Positions 6,293 to 58,255 of a stretch of DNA of 64,000 nt are shown here, piece after piece. The position numbers and the translations under genes were made by a program. This stretch comes from Gekko japonicus (taxonomy: Eukaryota). Each line of letters opens with the position of its first letter. The first letter of the stretch is position 1. The notes under the pieces were generated by a model. The model was not told the DNA's origin, ran no database searches, and saw only the letters and a program-made list of their open reading frames with translations. The stretch covers positions 1 to 64,000 of the forward strand of contig NW_015160330.1 in NCBI RefSeq assembly GCF_001447785.1, written 5' to 3'.

Positions 6293-7243
6293 ATGTCCGT
6301 CTGTAATGGAAGCCGTGGGACCCCTTCCTCTTTCATCCTCCTGGGCATCCCTGGCCTGGAAGCGGTCTACCACTGGCTCTCCATCCCTCTTTCGTCCATG
6401 TACATCGTGACGCTGCTGGGGAACTGCACCCTCTTGTACACCATTGCGACGGAGCCCAGCCTCCACCGGCCCATGTACGTCTTCCTCTGCATGCTGGCCC
6501 TCATCGACCTGGTGCTCTCCACCTCCACCCTGCCCAAGATGCTCTGCATCCTCTGGTCCCGAGCTGGGGAGATCGACTTCAACTCCTGCCTGGTCCAGAT
6601 GTTCTTCATCCACTCCTTCTCCATCATGGAGTCGACGGTGCTCGTGGCCATGGCCTTCGACCGCTACGTGGCCATCTGCAACCCCCTGAGGTACGACTCC
6701 ATCCTAACCAACCCGTTGTTGGCCAAAATTGGGGCGGTGGTGGTCGTGAGGGGCTCGGCCTTCATCACCCCCATTGTCATCTTGGCGTCCCGCCTGCCGT
6801 ACTGCAAGACCCACCTCATCGGCCACACCTACTGCGAGCACATGGCCGTGGTGAAGCTGGCTTGCTCCAGCATCGTCGCCAACATTGTGTACGGCTTGGT
6901 GGTGGCTCTCCTCGTGGTGGGGGTGGACTTGCTGTTCATCACCCTTTCCTACTGCATGATCGCCAGGGCGGTCTTGGCCTTGCCGTCCAAAGACGCCCGC
7001 CACAAAGCCTTCAGCACCTGCGCGGCTCACGTGGCGGTCATCCTGGTGTCCTACACCCCGGCGCTTTTCACCATCCTGACACACCGATTTGGGCACCACG
7101 TGATGCCTCATGTGCACATCCTCCTGGCCAACTTCTACCTCCTCTTCCCCCCCATGCTGAACCCCATCGTGTACGGGGTGAAGACCAAGGAGATCCGTGA
7201 CTGCGTGATCCACATGCTTCTGCGGAGAAAGCACCTTTCCTGA
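6293..7243 (+). CDS. Class I olfactory receptor, OR52-like, 316 aa
   Basis: GIPGLE, LHRPMY, MAFDRYVAICNPLRY, HTYCEHMAVVKLAC, KAFSTC, PPMLNPIVYGVKT; NGS glycosylation site; intact ORF. Confidence 0.96.
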   Translation: MSVCNGSRGTPSSFILLGIPGLEAVYHWLSIPLSSMYIVTLLGNCTLLYTIATEPSLHRPMYVFLCMLALIDLVLSTSTLPKMLCILWSRAGEIDFNSCLVQMFFIHSFSIMESTVLVAMAFDRYVAICNPLRYDSILTNPLLAKIGAVVVVRGSAFITPIVILASRLPYCKTHLIGHTYCEHMAVVKLACSSIVANIVYGLVVALLVVGVDLLFITLSYCMIARAVLALPSKDARHKAFSTCAAHVAVILVSYTPALFTILTHRFGHHVMPHVHILLANFYLLFPPMLNPIVYGVKTKEIRDCVIHMLLRRKHLS

Positions 7244-14649: not shown

Positions 14650-15440
14650 GAGAATTAAACAGGTCCATGGAGGGAAGGTCTATCAGTGGCTATGGTGACT
14701 AAGGGGAACCTCAACGTTCAGATGGATTCTGAATCCCAGCGCCAGGATGCAACATCAGGGGGCCACTTCAGCCTCTCTGCCCTGTTGTTGGCCCTGCAGA
14801 GGAACTGGTTGGCCACTGTGTGAGATGGGATGCTGGACTAGATGGATAATTGGCCTGATCTGCCAGGACTCTTCTGATGTTCCTCTTGGGGGACGGCCCC
14901 GGCCTTTGAGCCTTGTTGTTGGCCATCGAGAGGAGCTGGTTGGCCGCCCTGTTGTTGGACCTCCAGAGGAGCTGGCTGGCCCCTGTGTGAGACAAGAGGC
15001 TGGACTAGATGGACCCTCACTGGTCTGATCCAGCAGGGCTCTTCTAAGGTTCTTATCAGGGGAAGGCCTCGGCCTCTCTGCCCTGTTGCTGGCCCTCCAG
15101 AGGAACTGGCTGGCCCCTGTGTGAGACCGGAGGCTGGACTAGAAGGACCCTCCCTGGTCTGACCCAGCAGGGCTCTTCTGAAGTTCTTCTCAGGGGAAGG
15201 CCTCGGCCTCTCTGCCCTGTTGTTGACCCTCCAGGGGAACTGGCTGGCCCCTGTGTGAGACAAGATGCTGGACTGGATGGATAATTGGCCCAATCTGATG
15301 TTCTTATCAGGGGAAGGCCTCGGCCTGTGAGCCTTGTTGTTGGCCATCCAGAGGAGCTGGTGGGCCACTGTGTGAGACACAATGATGGACTGGATGGATC
15401 TCTGGGCTGATCCACCAGGGCTTTTCTTATGTTCTTATGT
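14650..15440 (+). repeat. CR1 3'-end tandem array (about 5 units)
   Basis: Same unit as 5385-6128; ends TTCTTATGTTCTTATG. Confidence 0.82.
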
Positions 15441-15480
15441 GCAGGGCCCAGGAAGAGGTCCAAGCCCTCTCCAATCCGGC

Positions 15481-16440
15481 ATGTCCGACTTTGGCAGCAA
15501 CTCCAGCAGCTGTTTTCACCCTTCATTTTTCTTCCTGGTGGGGATCCCGGGCTTAGAGGCTGCCCATATCTGGCTCTCCATCCCGCTCTGCTTCATCTAC
15601 GTGGGAACTGTGCTGGGGAACTGCACCATCATGCTGGTCATCTGGGCGGAGGAGAGCCTGCACGAGCCCATGTATTTCTTCCTCTGCATGCTGGCTGGGG
15701 TGGACCTAGCCGGCTCCACCTCTGTGGTGCCCAAATTGCTCTGCCTCTTCTGGTTCGGCTCTCACGAGATCCCCTTCGAAGGGTGCCTGCTGCAGATGTT
15801 CTTCATCCACGCCCTCTCCATCATCGAGTCAGCCATATTGGTGGCCATGGCCTTTGACCGCTATGTGGCTATCTGCCAGCCACTGCACTACACGACCATC
15901 CTGACGAATCCGGTCATTGTCAAGATGGGCTGCCTGGCTGTCGTGAGGGGGGCCATCTTGACCTCCCCATTTTCCATCCTCGCCAGCAGACTGCCCTACT
16001 GCCGGACTAACGTGGTCCCTCACACATACTGCGAGCACATGGGCATTGTCCGGTTGGCCTGCGGCAGCACCGTCATCAATAACTTGTACGGCCTCACAGT
16101 GGCTCTGCTCGTGGTAGGTCTGGATCTCCTCTTCATTGGCGTCTCCTACGCCAAAATCCTCTTGACTGTGTTGAGGCTGCCCTCGCAAGAGGCCCAGGCC
16201 AAGGCCTTCAGCACCTGTGGCTCCCACATCTGTGTGATTGTCTTGGCCTACACGCCTGCCCTCTTCTCTTTTCTCACCCACCGCTTTGGCCACAACGTGG
16301 CCCCTTACATCCACATCCTCATTGGCAACTTCTACATCCTGGTGCCCCCCTTCTGCAATCCCATTGTGTATGGTATAAAGACCAAGCTGATCCGAGACAA
16401 GGTGGTCAGCCTGCTCTCCAGGAAAAAGGACATCTCCTAA
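15481..16440 (+). CDS. Class I olfactory receptor, OR52-like, 319 aa
   Basis: ATG at 15481 (MSDFGSNSS); GIPGLE, LHEPMY, MAFDRYVAICQPLHY, HTYCEHMGIVRLAC, KAFSTCGSH, NPIVYGIKT. Confidence 0.95.
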   Translation: MSDFGSNSSSCFHPSFFFLVGIPGLEAAHIWLSIPLCFIYVGTVLGNCTIMLVIWAEESLHEPMYFFLCMLAGVDLAGSTSVVPKLLCLFWFGSHEIPFEGCLLQMFFIHALSIIESAILVAMAFDRYVAICQPLHYTTILTNPVIVKMGCLAVVRGAILTSPFSILASRLPYCRTNVVPHTYCEHMGIVRLACGSTVINNLYGLTVALLVVGLDLLFIGVSYAKILLTVLRLPSQEAQAKAFSTCGSHICVIVLAYTPALFSFLTHRFGHNVAPYIHILIGNFYILVPPFCNPIVYGIKTKLIRDKVVSLLSRKKDIS

Positions 16441-38239: not shown

Positions 38240-38335
38240 GTTCCTGGCCCCCTGCCCCTGACTCTAACTCACGATATTGTTTTGTGTGTTGAACTGTAGG
38301 GGGAAGACGACGTTCTAGAAGACTGGTGGTGCGTC

Positions 38336-39319
38336 ATGCTAAACCCCAATGCGACAGGAGGCCGGCCTTTCGCCTTCTTCCTCACCGGGTTCTCAGGGCT
38401 CGGAGCTGGCCGTCAGCTCTGGCTCTCCGTCCCAATCTGCTTTATGTATCTCGTCGCTCTTTCCGGCAACTGCCTGATCCTCGCGGTGGTCCAGCTGCAC
38501 CCCAGCCTCCACGAGCCCATGTACCTATTCCTCTCCATGCTGTCTCTCACTGACCTGGGCCTGTCCCTTTCCACCTTGCCAACGGTCCTTCAGATCTACG
38601 CCTTCGGCTCCAGGGAAATCTCCGCCGACGCCTGCCTGGCCCAGCTGTTCTTCATCCACACCTTCTCCGTCATGGAGAGCTCCGTGCTGCTGGCCATGGC
38701 CTTCGACCGCTTTGTCGCGATACGCCACCCTCTGCGGTACGTCTCGGCGCTGACCCGAGGCAGGATCGGGGGTATCGGGCTGGCCATTGCCCTGAGAGGG
38801 GTGGGGCTTCACATCCCGGCCCCCGTCCTGTTGAAGAGGCTGCCCTATTGCCGGAGCCACCAGCTCGCCCACTCCTACTGTCTCCATCCGGACGTGATGA
38901 GGCTGGCCTGTGCAGACACGGCCCCCAACAGCGCCTACGGCCTCTTTGTCCTCCTCTCCACGCTGGGCCTGGACTCCTTGCTCATCCTCCTCTCTTACGT
39001 CCTGATCCTCAGGACCGTGCTGAGCATCGCTTCTCGGGCGGAGCGCTCGAAAGCCCTGAGCACCTGCGTCTCCCACGTCTGCGCCGTCCTGCTCTTCTAC
39101 ACGCCGCTCATCAGCTTGTCCATGATCCACCGCTTCTGGAAGGCGGCCCCCCACCACACCCGCATCCTCCTCTCCTACCTCCACTTCCTGGTCCCGCCCG
39201 TGCTGAACCCCGTGGTCTACAGCATAAAAACCCGGCAGGTTCGAAAGCAGATCGTCAGGCTGTTCCGGCAAAAGAATCTGACCAGGCGCAGGAAGGATCC
39301 TGCCTTTTTGGACCCCTAG
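38336..39319 (+). CDS. Class I olfactory receptor, OR51-like, 327 aa
   Basis: LHEPMY, MAFDRFVAIRHPLRY, HSYCLHPDVMRLAC, KALSTCVSH, PPVLNPVVYSIKT. Confidence 0.96.
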   Translation: MLNPNATGGRPFAFFLTGFSGLGAGRQLWLSVPICFMYLVALSGNCLILAVVQLHPSLHEPMYLFLSMLSLTDLGLSLSTLPTVLQIYAFGSREISADACLAQLFFIHTFSVMESSVLLAMAFDRFVAIRHPLRYVSALTRGRIGGIGLAIALRGVGLHIPAPVLLKRLPYCRSHQLAHSYCLHPDVMRLACADTAPNSAYGLFVLLSTLGLDSLLILLSYVLILRTVLSIASRAERSKALSTCVSHVCAVLLFYTPLISLSMIHRFWKAAPHHTRILLSYLHFLVPPVLNPVVYSIKTRQVRKQIVRLFRQKNLTRRRKDPAFLDP

Positions 39320-44831: not shown

Positions 44832-46185
44832 GTTGGGTTAGAACGGATAAAAGGAAGTCTTTCTTCACCCAAAGAGTGATTAACACCCGGAATTCACTGC
44901 CACAGGAGGGGGGGGGGCGGCTACAAGCATGGACGGCTTCAAGAGGGAACTGGATAGACATCTGGAGCAGAGGTCCATCTGTGACTATTAGCCACAAGGT
45001 ATAGATAGGGACTCTGGGTCTGGGGCAAGGGATGCTCTGTGTTCTTGGTGCTTGTGGGTGGGGGGCAACAGTGGGAAGGCTTCTAGTGTCCTGGCCCCAC
45101 TGCTGGACCTCCTGACGGCACCTGGTACTTTTGGCCGCTGTGTGACACAGAGTGTTGGACTGGATGGGACATGGGCCCAGTCCAACATGGGCTTCTATTA
45201 TGTTCTTATAGGAACTCTCAGTCTGGGGCAAGGGATGCTCTGTATTCTTGGTGCTTGGGGGGGGGGCAAGANNNNNNNNNNNNNNNNNNNNNNNNNNNNN
45301 NNNNNNNNNNNNNNNNNNNNNNNNNNNNNNNNNNNNNNNNNNNNNNNNNNNNNNNNNNNNNNNNNNNNNNNNNNNNNNNNNNNNNNNNNNNNNNNNNNNN
45401 NNNNNNNNNNNNNNNNNNNNNNNNNNNNNNNNNNNNNNNNNNNNNNNNNNNNNNNNNNNNNNNNNNNNNNNNNNNNNNNNNNNNNNNNNNNNNNNNNNNN
45501 NNNNNNNNNNNNNNNNNCAGGCCAGAAAATGGAAGGCTGGATGCTGAAATGGACTTGCACAGATCTGCTTTGAGATTATACATAATGCAAACTCTCCCAC
45601 CGACCTGAGGCCATCAGGGCTCATGTAGAAATATTCCCCCCCTTTTTAAAATTTGTGTGTATGTGTGTGTGTGGGGGGGTACATGCGTGTGTCCATGTGT
45701 GCTCATGCCTGGAAGTCATGGTGACAGAGCCACAAGGTATAGATAGGGACTCTGGGGCAAGTGATGCACTGTATTCTTGGTTGCTTGGGGTGGGGCAACA
45801 GTGGGAGGGCTTCTGGAGTCCTGGCCCCACTGCTGGACCTCCTGAGGGCACCTGGTGTTTTTGGCCACTGTGTGACACAGAGTGTTGGACTGGATGGGCC
45901 TTTGGCCTGATCCAACATTGGCTTCTCTTAGGTTCTTATATGGAGCAGAGGTCCATCAGTAGGTATTAGCCACAAGGGATAGATAGGAACTCTTGGTCAG
46001 GGGCAAGTGATGCTCTGTCTTCTTGGTGCTTTGGGGGGGCAACAGTGGGAGGGCTGCTAGCGTCCTGGCCCCACTGGTGGACCTCCTGAGGGCACCTGGT
46101 ATTTCTGGCCACTGTGTGACAGACAGAGTGTTGGACTGGATGGGCCCTGGGCCTGATCCAACAAGGGCTTCTCTCTTATGTTCTC
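44832..46185 (+). repeat. Cluster of 3-4 consecutive CR1 3' ends (spans an N gap)
   Basis: Repeated AGCCACAAGG...GGACTGGATGGG...TTATGTTC blocks. Confidence 0.75.
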
Positions 46186-46309
46186 AATTTCCTTCCTGTA
46201 TGGAAGAAGAGCGTTGGCTCAGTTCTCCCCATGCCCAGCGGCACTGGGGACTAAGGGCTCCCATTTGCTTGTACCAGGATGAAGAAGCCAACCCCCCCCC
46301 CAGCACTAC

Positions 46310-48355
46310 CACTACCCCCTGTATATTGGAAGGCCGTACAACCAGGCTCTGACGTCACCACAATGGCGACGAGATTAGTCATAACAGTCCCCTAGTGGTG
46401 ATGTGCGGCTAAGCGGGCAGTTTGAATTCAGTTGCTGCAGTGTTGGAGAGAGATTTCAGTTAGAGGAGACTCGTGTTGGCTGTTGACTCTTCCTCTGTAA
46501 TACTCTGCTAACAACAATTTCTGTCCTTCATTTCTGGATTAAAACTGCCTTTTCACTGTTGTGTTCCTGAATCTTTCATGGAAGAAAGAGGTGGGTCGAT
46601 TCCCCGAAGCTTCCCTTCCCCCCCCTTCCCCCCATCTTTGCAATAGAGAGACGCTGGGGAGGTGGAGGCTGGGGGGGGGGGAAGCAGTTGCTGCTGAAAT
46701 GGGGATGAGAAGGAGTCTATATTTTCCTCTATTTTACTCAAAAGAAGTTCCATAGGAGGATTGAATGTTGTACGAGGTGGAGGCTGGGGGGGGGGAAGAA
46801 GTTGCTGCTGAAAAATNNNNNNNNNNNNNNNNNNNNNNNNNNNNNNNNNNNNNNNNNNNNNNNNNNNNNNNNNNNNNNNNNNNNNNNNNNNNNNNNNNNN
46901 NNNNNNNNNNNNNNNNNNNNNNNNNNNNNNNNNNNNNNNNNNNNNNNNNNNNNNNNNNNNNNNNNNNNNNNNNNNNNNNNNNNNNNNNNNNNNNNNNNNN
47001 NNNNNNNNNNNNNNNNNNNNNNNNNNNNNNNNNNNNNNNNNNNNNNNNNNNNNNNNNNNNNNNNNNNNNNNNNNNNNNNNNNNNNNNNNNNNNNNNNNNN
47101 NNNNNNNNNNNNNNNNNNNNNNNNNNNNNNNNNNNNNNNNNNNNNNNNNNNNNNNNNNNNNNNNNNNNNNNNNNNNNNNNNNNNNNNNNNNNNNNNNNNN
47201 NNNNNNNNNNNNNNNNNNNNNNNNNNNNNNNNNNNNNNNNNNNNNNNNNNNNNNNNNNNNNNNNNNNNNNNNNNNNNNNNNNNNNNNNNNNNNNNNNNNN
47301 NNNNNNNNNNNNNNNNNNNNNNNNNNNNNNNNNNNNNNNNNNNNNNNNNNNNNNNNNNNNNNNNNNNNNNNNNNNNNNNNNNNNNNNNNNNNNNNNNNNN
47401 NNNNNNNNNNNNNNNNNNNNNNNNNNNNNNNNNNNNNNNNNNNNNNNNNTGTGTATTTAAATTACCTGGAGTGCTTTTGCTTTACAGGTATGTGTTCTTC
47501 ACTTTCAAACCAGTGACGTCTTATGGTAGACAGAACTGTTTGATGAAAAGAAGAGGATTAATTTGTTGTTGTACTGTCTTTATATTACATTTGTTGGTTC
47601 CCTTGAACGTTTGTGATGGTACACCAATATCCTGTGTAGCTGTTCTTTTTTGGTAACTGGAGATTATGATTGAAGTTTACTGTATGTGAAGACGTCTTAC
47701 CAAAGTATGAGTTTGTGCATATTACTATCTCATGCTGTGTCGTCAATGTTAAATAAAAAGTAATACTGAAAACCAGAAGTTATTAAACTCTTAGTATTAC
47801 TATTATTTGACAATTTATGCTCACATGCAAAGTGGGGATGACAGCCGTGTGATGAACCACATTCATTGTTCTGTCATCTTTGATGCAAGCAGTGTGCTTT
47901 TAAGTGTCCTTTGAAAATTCTAGTCTATAAGGCTGGCTTTAATACTGAGCAGAAGAAGGGGATGTGCAGAACCCCCCAGTTCCCTTCTGGATTTGTTGTG
48001 GCAAACTGAAGCAAAACCCACTGATCTGCCCACAAAAAATCTGAAATAGAGTGAGAATAGACAATACCATCATACAACAGACATCCACCACTCTCCAATA
48101 TTATATGCTTGTAAATTATATGAAACATACACTCAAATATGCAAGGGAAACTGAACTCAGTAACACTGTAAGCTAGTGTGAAGTGTCTGGAATACTACAG
48201 TGAAAGAATCAAGATAATATCTTGTTGCGTACACGAGAAAATACAATTTAAAACAATTGTGAAAGTAGCTGGCAACTGCAGAGTTCAGGGAATGTTATGA
48301 CTACATGCGGTGACGTCAAAGCCTGGTTGTACGGCCTTCAATATAGGGGGCAGTG
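46310..48355. mobile_element. ~2-kb TIR DNA transposon with 7-bp TSD (P/Galileo-like signature)
   Basis: ~50-bp imperfect TIRs beginning CACT(A/G)CCCCC; TSD GCACTAC at 46303-46309 and 48356-48362. Confidence 0.8.
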
Positions 48356-49624
48356 GCACTACGTGCAAGGAAACCCTCTGCATTCTCCTGCTCTGTGGCA
48401 TTCAGGGCTCTTCCCTCCTTTCAGCTCTCCAGCGGAGTCTTGCAATCACCTTCCCTTCATCTCCCCACAAGGGGCACCCTGTGAGGCAGGGGGGGGGGAC
48501 TGAGAGAGCTCAGAGAGAAACTGTGACTGGCCCGAGGTCACCCAGCAGGCTTCCCGGAGGGGGGGAGGAGGACTGGGGAATCGAACCTAGTTTGCCAGAT
48601 TAGAGGCCGCCAGTCGGAACCACGACACCACGCTGGTTGCTTCCGTGTGGCACCTTTATGGTGCTTAGATAGTCACAGCAGCTAGACGTTAGGTTACATT
48701 TTTAATCTGCTTGTAATGTCTTATTGATGTGTTTTAAAATTATGTAATTCTGTAAAGGTGGACTTCTTCTTTTTTTGTAGTATTACTGGTCTAAGGACGG
48801 TGAGCAATGAACTGAACGGAACTGAAGGCTGGCTGCTTTACAACATGTTGCATTCCATGAACAAGAGGAAGAGCTGGTTTTTTATATCCTTTCAGGAGTC
48901 TCAGAGTGGCTCACAACCTGCTTCCTTTCCCCTCCCCTCCACAGGCACCTTGTGAGGCAGGCGGGGCTGAGAGAGTTCAGAGAGAACGGTGATTGGCCCA
49001 CGCTCACCCAGCAGGCTTCCTGGGGAGGAGGAGGAGGAGTGGGGAATCAAAGTCGGCTCTTCGGATCAGGGCCCGCTGCTCTTAACCATGACACCACGGT
49101 GGCTCTCGGGCCGAGCGGGCGTTGCCGGCGAGAGGAGCCTCAGCAAAGGCCTGTGAAGGAGCCGGAGCAGCCGGTCGGTGGGCTGGCAGATCTTTCAAGC
49201 ACCTCAGTGGGTTTTCCATAAGCGAGGCTTGGTTCCTTGGAGAGAGGACTTAAAAGCCATTTCCATCCAAAGAAGGGGGGAAAACCCCAGCGGCTGCAGT
49301 TTTCCTGGCAGGGCTGCCTTTGAGTTACCCGCGTCCGTAAAACCCGGCAATTGGCCAAGACAGGAGCCTGCCTCCACACCCTGGTCCTTGGTGCCCTTTC
49401 AAGGTCTGTGTAGGTTCTCTGACATTTGATGACCGGCCTCTCCCGAGGTCAACCGCTCCTCCATCCTGCCCGCCTGATCAGCAGTTTTAGAGATCACTCA
49501 AGCTTGAAAATCTGGCCGTGGATTGCCTCGCAGGAGCCCAGAGCAGTTCCTGAAGGTGGCGTTTCCCTCCCTTCCTTTCTGGCATTCCGCAGAGGAACTG
49601 GGAAGGTGCCACGTGTGACTCATC

Positions 49625-50590
49625 ATGACCCCCTTCACCCCCGCCAACGTCAGCAACCCCGCGCTCGGCCTGAGCGGCTTCCCAGGGCTGGAGATGGTTC
49701 ACCACTGGATCGGCATCCCCATCTTTTCCGCCTACCTGGTGGCAGCACTGGGCAACTGCACCATCCTGTACGTCATCTGGACGGAGCCCAGCCTGCACCA
49801 GCCCATGTACTATTTCCTGGCCATGCTGGCCACCACCGACCTGGGACTCTGCCTCACCACCGTGCCCACCGTCATGGGAGTCCTCTGGTTCCAGCTGAGG
49901 AAGATCAGCAAACACGCCTGCATCGCTCAGCTCTTTATTGTTCATTCCTTCTCCTTCATGGAGTCCGCCGTGCTCTTTGCCATGGCGATAGACCGCTTCC
50001 TGGCCATCTGCTTCCCTCTGAGGTACGCTGCTCTCGTGACCCCCACCAGGGTGGCTACGATGGGTCTTGTTCTCCTGTTGAGAAGCACCCTGTTCTTGCT
50101 GCCTCCTGTGCCTTTTATGTTGCGGTTCCCGTATTGCCCAAGGGCTGTCCTTTCTCACTCCTACTGTCTCCATCAGGACCTGATCCGCCTGGCATGCGCC
50201 AACACAGCCTTCAACAGCCTTTACGCTCTCACCCTCATCCTCCTCACCATGGGCTCTGACCTCCTCTTCATCCTCCTCTCATACAGCCTGATCCTGAAGG
50301 CAGTCCTGGGCATGACCTCTGGGGACGAAGGCCACCGCAAGGCCCTGGGCACCTGCGTCTCCCACATCTGTGCTGTCCTGGTCTTCTACGTTCCGGTGCT
50401 CGGGCTCTCTGTTGTGCACCGGTTTGGCCGGCATGCCTCTCCCCTCCTCCACGTCGTCATGGGCAACATCTACATCCTCCTCCCACCCCTGATGAACCCC
50501 GTCATCTACAGCATCAAAACCAAGCAGATCTACACCAGGATCCTCAGAATACCCTTTATCCTGAATCCTTTTGGGAGAAAAAGGTGCTAA
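49625..50590 (+). CDS. Class I olfactory receptor, OR51-like, 321 aa
   Basis: GFPGLE, LHQPMY, MAIDRFLAICFPLRY, HSYCLHQDLIRLAC, KALGTCVSH, PPLMNPVIYSIKT. Confidence 0.96.
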   Translation: MTPFTPANVSNPALGLSGFPGLEMVHHWIGIPIFSAYLVAALGNCTILYVIWTEPSLHQPMYYFLAMLATTDLGLCLTTVPTVMGVLWFQLRKISKHACIAQLFIVHSFSFMESAVLFAMAIDRFLAICFPLRYAALVTPTRVATMGLVLLLRSTLFLLPPVPFMLRFPYCPRAVLSHSYCLHQDLIRLACANTAFNSLYALTLILLTMGSDLLFILLSYSLILKAVLGMTSGDEGHRKALGTCVSHICAVLVFYVPVLGLSVVHRFGRHASPLLHVVMGNIYILLPPLMNPVIYSIKTKQIYTRILRIPFILNPFGRKRC

Positions 50591-57189: not shown

Positions 57190-58155
57190 TCAGTCAGGCC
57201 TGGACTTGGTGGTGTCCCTTCCTGGCAGGAAGACCCTGACGACCCGTTCCCGGATCTCCTTGGTCCTCACTCCGTACACGATGGGGTTCAGCATGGGAGG
57301 GAAGAGGAGGTAGAGGTTGGCCAGGATGATGTGGATGTGGGGAGCCACGTGGTGGCCGAAGCGGTGAGTGAAGAAGGAGAAGAGGGCAGGGCTGTACGAG
57401 ATGAGGATGACACAGAGGTGGGAGCCACAGGTGCCGAAGGCCTTGCGCCTGGCCTCGTGGGAGGAGAGCCGCAGGACCGCGCGGACAATCAGGCAGTAGG
57501 AGAGGCCGATGAACAGCAGGTCTCCCCCGATGACCAGCAGCGCCACGCACAGCCCGTAAGTGCGGTTGACGCTGGTGTCCCCGCAGGCCAGCTTGACCAC
57601 CGCCATGTGCTCGCAGTAAGTGTGACGGATGACGTTGGTCCGGCAGAAGGACAACCTCCTGATCAAGAATGGGCAAGGGGCCATCAGCAGCGTCCCCCTG
57701 GCGACGGCAGCGACGCCCATCTTCGCCACCAGCGCCCCCGTGAAGACGGAGCTGTACCGGAGCGGGAAGCAGATGGCCACGTAGCGGTCCAGCGCCATGG
57801 CCAGCAGGATGGCCGACTCCATCATGCACAAGGCGTGGATGAAGAACATCTGGGCCAGGCAGGCACCGGCTTGGATCTCACCGCCCTGGAACCAGAAGAT
57901 GCAGAGCACCTTGGGCAGGGCGGAGGTGGAGGCGGCCAAGTCGATGGTGGCCAGCATGCAGAGGAAGTAGCACATGGGCCTGTGCAGGGCGGGCTCGGTC
58001 GCGATGACCAGGAGGAGGGTGCAGTTCCCAGCGATGATCACTATGTAGATGGCGCACACAGGCACCGAGAGCCACTTGTGGTAGGCCTCCAGCCCCGGGA
58101 TGCCTTGCAGCAGGAACGCGGAGGGGTTGGAGGGCGTCAGATTGGCAGAGGCCAT
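57190..58155 (-). CDS. Class I olfactory receptor, OR52-like, 321 aa
   Basis: GIPGLE, LHRPMC, MALDRYVAICFPLRY, HTYCEHMAVVKLAC, KAFGTCGSH, PPMLNPIVYGVRT. Confidence 0.96.
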   Translation of the reverse strand: MASANLTPSNPSAFLLQGIPGLEAYHKWLSVPVCAIYIVIIAGNCTLLLVIATEPALHRPMCYFLCMLATIDLAASTSALPKVLCIFWFQGGEIQAGACLAQMFFIHALCMMESAILLAMALDRYVAICFPLRYSSVFTGALVAKMGVAAVARGTLLMAPCPFLIRRLSFCRTNVIRHTYCEHMAVVKLACGDTSVNRTYGLCVALLVIGGDLLFIGLSYCLIVRAVLRLSSHEARRKAFGTCGSHLCVILISYSPALFSFFTHRFGHHVAPHIHIILANLYLLFPPMLNPIVYGVRTKEIRERVVRVFLPGRDTTKSRPD

Positions 58156-58255
58156 TGCTCAGCGGCAGCGGAGTCGCAGGGTCCTCTTCTGCGGCCCAGC
58201 CCCCATGACGGTCAGGCCACCTGGAAACCAGACCACAAGAGGCACAGGCCAAGAG

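Follow-up and report, generated by a model that had tools for sequence, protein, structure and literature searches.

Remnants of a THAP domain in a multi-copy element of Gekko japonicus point to a non-autonomous transposon of the P superfamily

In the portions of the literature on which this account draws, target-site duplications (TSDs) of 7 bp are described for two of the three Drosophila families of the P superfamily (PMC3698922). Galileo and 1360 have 7-bp TSDs and are intronless (PMC3698922, PMC10990002), and Galileo's terminal inverted repeats (TIRs) measure about 300-1,200 bp, with a range of 18-1,250 bp in one species (PMC3573991). In the Drosophila P element, the THAP sites are set inward from the TIRs by 21 nt at the 5' end (bp 53-63) and by 9 nt at the 3' end (bp 41-51; PMC7776569, PMC3688188). 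Among vertebrates, zebrafish possesses a TIR-flanked THAP9 with 13-bp TIRs and an 8-bp TSD, human THAP9 is without marks of mobility (PMC7776569), and THAP9 orthologs exist in lizards (PMC10824691). A survey of 23 vertebrate genomes recorded P elements in platyfish and coelacanth (PMC4350176), and a survey of Anolis, in the part of the paper drawn on here, recorded six superfamilies, P not being one of them (PMC3014272). As far as these sources extend, the vertebrates with reported mobile P elements are fish and coelacanth, whereas amniotes are represented by the fixed THAP9 gene.

Here, we describe an element of Gekko japonicus which very probably is a non-autonomous, internally deleted transposon of this superfamily. 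It lies at positions 46310-48355 of the window, by which we mean the whole stretch of 64,000 nucleotides that was analysed, and comprises 2,046 nt, including 633 N; it starts with CACTACCCCC and ends with GGGGGCAGTG. The initial annotation had proposed that its left end matches the reverse complement of its right end, that similarity resumes further inside at TAGTCATAACA, and that an exact 7-bp GCACTAC stands on both sides of an element containing a gap of about 630 bp, all of which is borne out. Alignment of the left 82 nt against the reverse-complemented right 68 nt gives 64 identities, 4 mismatches and 14 gap positions. The ends are composed of an imperfect outer repeat of about 50 bp (5' TIR, 46310-46359, plus strand; 3' TIR, 48309-48355, minus strand) and an inner inverted repeat of 16 bp, the arms of which lie 16 nt inside the 5' TIR (46376-46391, plus strand) and 5 nt inside the 3' TIR (48288-48303, minus strand). 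These two spacer lengths are kept in the loose ends of other copies, including one from sequencing run X3, found before 48310, which is the left end of another copy with the same spacer length. Within the window the 19-nt core of the TIR occurs twice (0.02 occurrences expected), and no second copy of the element was found in these 64 kb. A TGACGTCA palindrome followed by ATGGCG is also present inside the 5' end, at 46350-46370; we take the two to be putative promoter motifs of the CRE-like and YY1-like kinds.

The two GCACTAC copies occupy 46303-46309 and 48356-48362, and an exact 7-mer match between two random window positions arose in 17 of 200,000 trials. The 633 N lie at 46817-47449, within a putative intron discussed below, and each arm of the element runs unbroken into its own flank. 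A second copy of 46659-46699 enters the gap at 46774-46813 (plus strand, 95% identity over 41 nt). The right arm (47567-48287) is common to most copies and is without recognisable coding remnant.

The element is inserted among clustered olfactory receptor genes that lack introns. Five intact-looking receptor open reading frames are present (6293-7240, 15376-16440, 38300-39319, 49619-50590 and 57190-58158, minus strand), and all three of those tested matched Pfam 7tm_4. The element lies about 1.3 kb upstream of the receptor gene at 49.6 kb, and this adjoining receptor is closest in the PDB to the class I receptor OR51. On either side of the element, at 45750-46180 and 48480-49102, two abundant interspersed repeats stand as tandem pairs; BLAST within the window gives 15 and 10 pieces of them, counting the self matches. 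We take these repeats to be the 3' end of a CR1 element and a squamate SINE; no Pfam family was matched by two of the surrounding SINE/LINE-like fragments, and four SINE/LINE motifs of the kind present in the window did not occur in the three text supplements of a paper on squamate SINEs. The receptor genes mark the host as a vertebrate, and the likeness of the nearby SINE and LINE fragments suggests a gecko-like lizard.

Parts of the element are contained in at least 20 sequencing runs, belonging to 7 studies and bearing three organism labels, with at most 0.46 of its words in any one run. Copies were compared in four of the 24 runs listed (X1, X3, X14 and X21). In X1, two contigs link the left flank directly with the right flank and represent the site without the element: one joins 46301 to 48369 (depth 47.3, its shorter side having 61 letters) and the other joins 46301 to 48359 (depth 36.5, its shorter side having 70 letters). 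Their sequences across the site are A-GCACTAC-G and A-GCGCTAC-G; each contains one copy of the 7-mer, with an A>G change in one of them. A single 7-mer at the empty site directly shows the 7-bp duplication, at this one locus, and the insertion hence added 2,046 + 7 bases. Several flank positions differ between X1 and the window, and the coexistence of filled and empty states is either a polymorphism or a difference between close species.

The element is also repetitive in X1, where 836 contigs fall on it. The summed depth of its interior bins is 8,000-105,000, against 94 and 170 in the flank bins, a sign of repetition which does not amount to a copy number. The family is present in at least two organisms, the second being that of X14, with 16 contigs, one of which covers 46329-46745; a third organism (X16), with a share of 0.29, was left out of this count. 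In X14 a flank that ends in GAAGGGC is followed by the left end CACCACCCCC, and the three ends seen have in common only CAC-Y-R-CCCCC. Loose ends behind 48306 (X14) and 48318 (X3) represent right ends with a diverged outer repeat, in copies that otherwise keep the inner repeat as well as the right arm; such ends in both runs indicate that sister subfamilies exist.

Many copies are internally deleted, and no autonomous partner was seen among them. In the four runs compared, frequent joints omit about 800 nt, leading from 46758-46771 to 47556-47583, and some copies omit an additional 260-281 nt, so that deleted forms of about 1,245 (1.25 kb), 970 and 750 nt are found. Multiple dispersed, internally deleted copies together with an empty site are the mark of a mobile family, and both are present here. 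An RNA form in X21 (36 reads) exits the element behind 46764, at the common deletion point, and runs on into different sequence; this could represent either a host transcript making use of a copy or the next part of the parent element. Raw RNA reads of X21 fall about equally on both strands.

At 13 of the 40 variant positions listed, nearly all of the X1 depth departs from the window copy. Between 46185 and 48435, comparison with X1, X3, X14 and X21 also reveals a strand-asymmetric excess of A in the window copy at the differing sites, with 47 A versus 27 T in X1 (p 0.006), the remaining three runs giving p values of 0.03, 0.007 and 0.12. Part of this excess may be consensus error beside the gap, introduced by gap filling in the assembly, and such possible errors make the age of the window copy uncertain.

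The initial annotation saw no transposase in the element. This does not hold, as remnants of a THAP domain are found on the plus strand in two pieces, a THAP start and a C-x-x-H half, in the correct order and as in P-like transposases. The first piece, LPFHCCVPES (46545-46574), ranked first of 127,942 window positions and its score was reached in 1 of 300 shuffles. It lies in the portion common to all copies, 236 nt from the 5' end, and reads better in other copies than in the window: a C>A change at 46545 restores an ATG start (depth 6,718 of 7,903 in X1; 15 of 21 reads in X21), and a C>G change at 46573 restores the second Cys (2,955 of 5,044 in other copies). The start of human THAP11 contains a similar F-x-C-C-V-P. 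A weak mid-THAP remnant, SIPRSF, follows in frame at 46596-46613 (plus strand), but alone it is not significant (30 of 300 shuffles reach its score and six window positions equal it).

The second piece lies 940 nt from the first and reads VCVLHFQTSDVLW, one stop codon and TELFDEK (47488-47550, plus strand), where an internal deletion ends it. With a matrix built from 60 THAP domains, this block ranked first of 127,876 window positions, and none of 300 shuffles reached its score. In tblastn of 158 THAP/P-like proteins against the element, the best seven matches all fell at 47476-47568 on the plus strand, the best of them with an identity of 57% across 30 aa (P0025) and of 55% across 22 aa (P0046). 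Sub-profile hidden Markov models gave 15.4 bits at 47485-47550, and the best score outside the element in any of the 37 sub-profiles was 8.5 bits. Immediately upstream, at 47478-47487 (plus strand), stands a splice-acceptor-like GCTTTACAG, which would mark an intron at a position common to related transposases. The piece is retained by a minority of copies only (depth 194-1,463 versus 24,000 or more). Its peptide matched nothing in Pfam or the PDB, and a homolog search yielded two candidates and nothing usable; these library searches came up empty because the remnant is too short. Among the loose ends listed, no X21 RNA read crossed a joint at the putative intron, a result limited by the assembly gap.

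The remainder of the gene appears to be missing from the readable part of the element. The 60-domain matrix located no FxFP block of THAP (225 of 300 shuffles reach its score), and in the 1,413 sequenced bases, which exclude the 633 unread N, there was no remnant of the helix-turn-helix (HTH), RNase H (DDE) or GTP-binding core. When 442 blocks of 14 transposase columns were scanned against the window, 15 peaked inside the element, where about 10 were expected; of these, the THAP exon-2 blocks alone stood out clearly on the correct strand and in the correct order. Two further candidates were dropped: 46698-46761, considered as mid-THAP residues, after the scan with the 60-domain matrix, and 47893-47967, considered as a C-terminal motif, after the sub-profile and block scans.

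The proteins used for comparison were retrieved independently of the remnant, by means of a degenerate motif for the C-terminal end of THAP. The motif led to 14 animal contigs, among them locus L053, whose relatives include a tick protein of 907 aa, and this protein in turn led to 150 P-like transposases; the set is P-like by construction (motif and P-like query), and THAP domains of other superfamilies are outside it. L053 (1-3893) is an animal contig from a metagenome that consists almost entirely of a P-like transposase gene with THAP and a TNP-like RNase H; inverted arms of 31 nt close it off at both ends, without flanks. Tnp_P_element and/or the N-terminal part of TNP-like RNase H were detected in 14 of the 15 proteins scanned, 13 of which had been picked as good matches to the remnant, the others being P0010 and the query P0007. 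P0025 and P0046 match the structure of the Drosophila P transposase, 6P5A (E 6e-14 and 5e-11), and the named members of the set are spider, tick and beetle proteins. One protein, P0008, has this type of THAP beside another domain, PF13837. A usable TSD was found at none of the THAP/P loci L046, L050, L051, L053, L054 and L057. In viral contigs, TIR-derived patterns gave 23 and 18 matches without further similarity to the element, and scans with THAP motifs gave four chance matches and then none.

The same set bears on the putative intron. In 5 of 11 open reading frame calls that lack the THAP start, Q directly precedes V-C-x-x-H-F, as expected from read-through of a splice acceptor, and L050 has an AG|GTGTGT acceptor at the same place, after an upstream stop. 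At the DNA level, an intron at that position is absent from three of the four loci examined (L048, L054 and L056).

The element could also stem from a transposon outside the P superfamily that makes 7-bp duplications, for example one of the hAT group with this length, whose parent carried a THAP domain or had captured a THAP exon; we regard this as unlikely. Although the exon-2 piece is confined to the minority of copies noted above and the comparison set is P-like only, the THAP start belongs to the portion shared by all copies, is collinear with exon 2 and lies on the same strand, and the 16/5 geometry of the spacers resembles that of the P element. In addition, hAT enzymes usually carry a BED finger, which counts against a hAT origin. 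On the other side, some hAT families are annotated by Repbase with 7-bp TSDs, according to the part of PMC4455052 considered; a literature search yielded no useful description of these families and no reference sequence.

The initial annotation had called the element Galileo-like. This stands for the length of the TSD, but not for the length of the TIRs or the putative intron, and membership of the Galileo family itself is very unlikely. In its favour, Galileo makes a 7-bp TSD and the target GCACTAC is, as had been claimed, one mismatch from the Galileo consensus GTANTAC given in the excerpted part of PMC4168063. However, the TIRs of Galileo are long and internally repeated, whereas the present ends consist of about 50 bp and the 16-bp inner repeat; Galileo is intronless, whereas the 940-nt split of THAP and the shared acceptor position suggest an intron here; and the X14 flank GAAGGGC, seen on one side only, matches GTANTAC at just 3 of 6 fixed positions. 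Nor could CACT termini be confirmed as a mark of Galileo, as none were mentioned in the accessible portions of the Galileo papers PMC3688188 and PMC3573991, and CAC ends also mark Chapaev3 (PMC3014272, in part). Short ends together with the putative intron argue that the element is not Galileo proper. A CMC element with CAC ends (Chapaev3/EnSpm), or a Kolobok, whose 7-mer arose by chance or through misassembly over the gap, is highly improbable: CAC ends are indeed found in the Chapaev3 of Anolis and 633 N separate the arms, but the empty site gives exactly 7 bp duplicated, each unbroken arm has its own flank, and neither the 3-bp TWA duplication of Chapaev3 nor the TTAA duplication and RR..YY ends of Kolobok, as outlined in the parts of PMC3014272 and PMC9587614 used here, are found in the element.

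We return to the P superfamily, of which the element presents TIRs, a 7-bp duplication (at one locus) and N-terminal THAP remnants (below library thresholds). The empty site, the many copies and the THAP remnants support the earlier proposal, namely that the element is non-autonomous and belongs to a P-like family that was once mobile, and P-type elements likely kept moving in this animal. The parent would have carried, on the plus strand, a gene for a transposase with THAP, HTH and RNase H, interrupted by an intron just 5' of the C-x-x-H motif, and most of the gene body may have been lost through incomplete repair after excision. Transposase supplied in trans by an intact relative would then use its THAP domain to bind the inner 16-bp repeats, candidate binding sites by analogy with P; cleavage at the CAC ends would be followed by their transfer to target strands at a distance of 7 bp, and filling of the gaps would produce the 7-bp duplication. 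Judging from the remnant peptides, we infer that the parent may belong to a clade whose named members in our set are arthropod proteins, outside Galileo and probably outside the THAP9 line. The stretch that separates the last His and the Pro of AVP measures 21 residues in amniote THAP9 (PMC10824691, in the part used) and 36 in P0046; the remnant seems to match the long loop of P0046, unlike THAP9.

No description of a mobile P family in squamates was found in the literature as far as covered, Repbase and Dfam being outside the scope of this search. In particular, the portions considered of PMC7070016, PMC6050309, PMC12905397 and PMC10702118 mention none, although the repeat tables in survey supplements may contain a P class. 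The arthropod identity of the named relatives, together with the long THAP loop, suggests a possible transfer from arthropods to reptiles; identities of 55-57% over 22-30 residues are too little to date or prove it. As a tentative scenario, which we consider rather less than even, an arthropod-type P unrelated to the domesticated THAP9 entered a lizard lineage, multiplied in several related species and was mobile so recently that genomes differ in their sites. On that scenario, no mobile family of the P superfamily would have been described from an amniote before, and a transposase close to intact may still exist. A multi-copy amniote P family that varies in presence and absence would widen the known range of the superfamily, would give a test case for the transfer of transposons from arthropods to reptiles, and would supply natural ends and a transposase for comparison with Drosophila P and THAP9. 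Families with TIRs and no gene, which usually stay unclassified, would also prove placeable from a few dozen codons. The mechanism at work would be one already known.

The element resembles described systems in several ways. With the Drosophila P element it shares short TIRs, an N-terminal THAP, introns (putative here), internally deleted derivatives and unequal spacing of the inner repeats with the longer spacer 5' (21/9 nt in the excerpts cited at the outset, versus 16/5 nt), whereas P has an 8-bp TSD and perfect TIRs of 31 bp and the gecko element 7 bp and imperfect ends of about 50 bp. Galileo and 1360/Hoppel have the same TSD length and are intronless, in contrast to the intron proposed for the element. 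Like zebrafish Pdre, it would be a vertebrate representative of the superfamily with TIRs and deleted relatives, whereas the fixed THAP9 gene of amniotes lacks TIRs and the element is TIR-bounded and multi-copy. Among the arthropod transposases with THAP and Tnp_P_element, such as P0046 (Stegodyphus dumicola LOC118191504) and P0007 (Amblyomma americanum LOC144123693), the putative intron position of the element is common to several members of the set, and P0046 is alike in the THAP start and in the long-loop C-x-x-H half; these are proteins compared by sequence, whereas the element consists of remnants only, in a vertebrate host.
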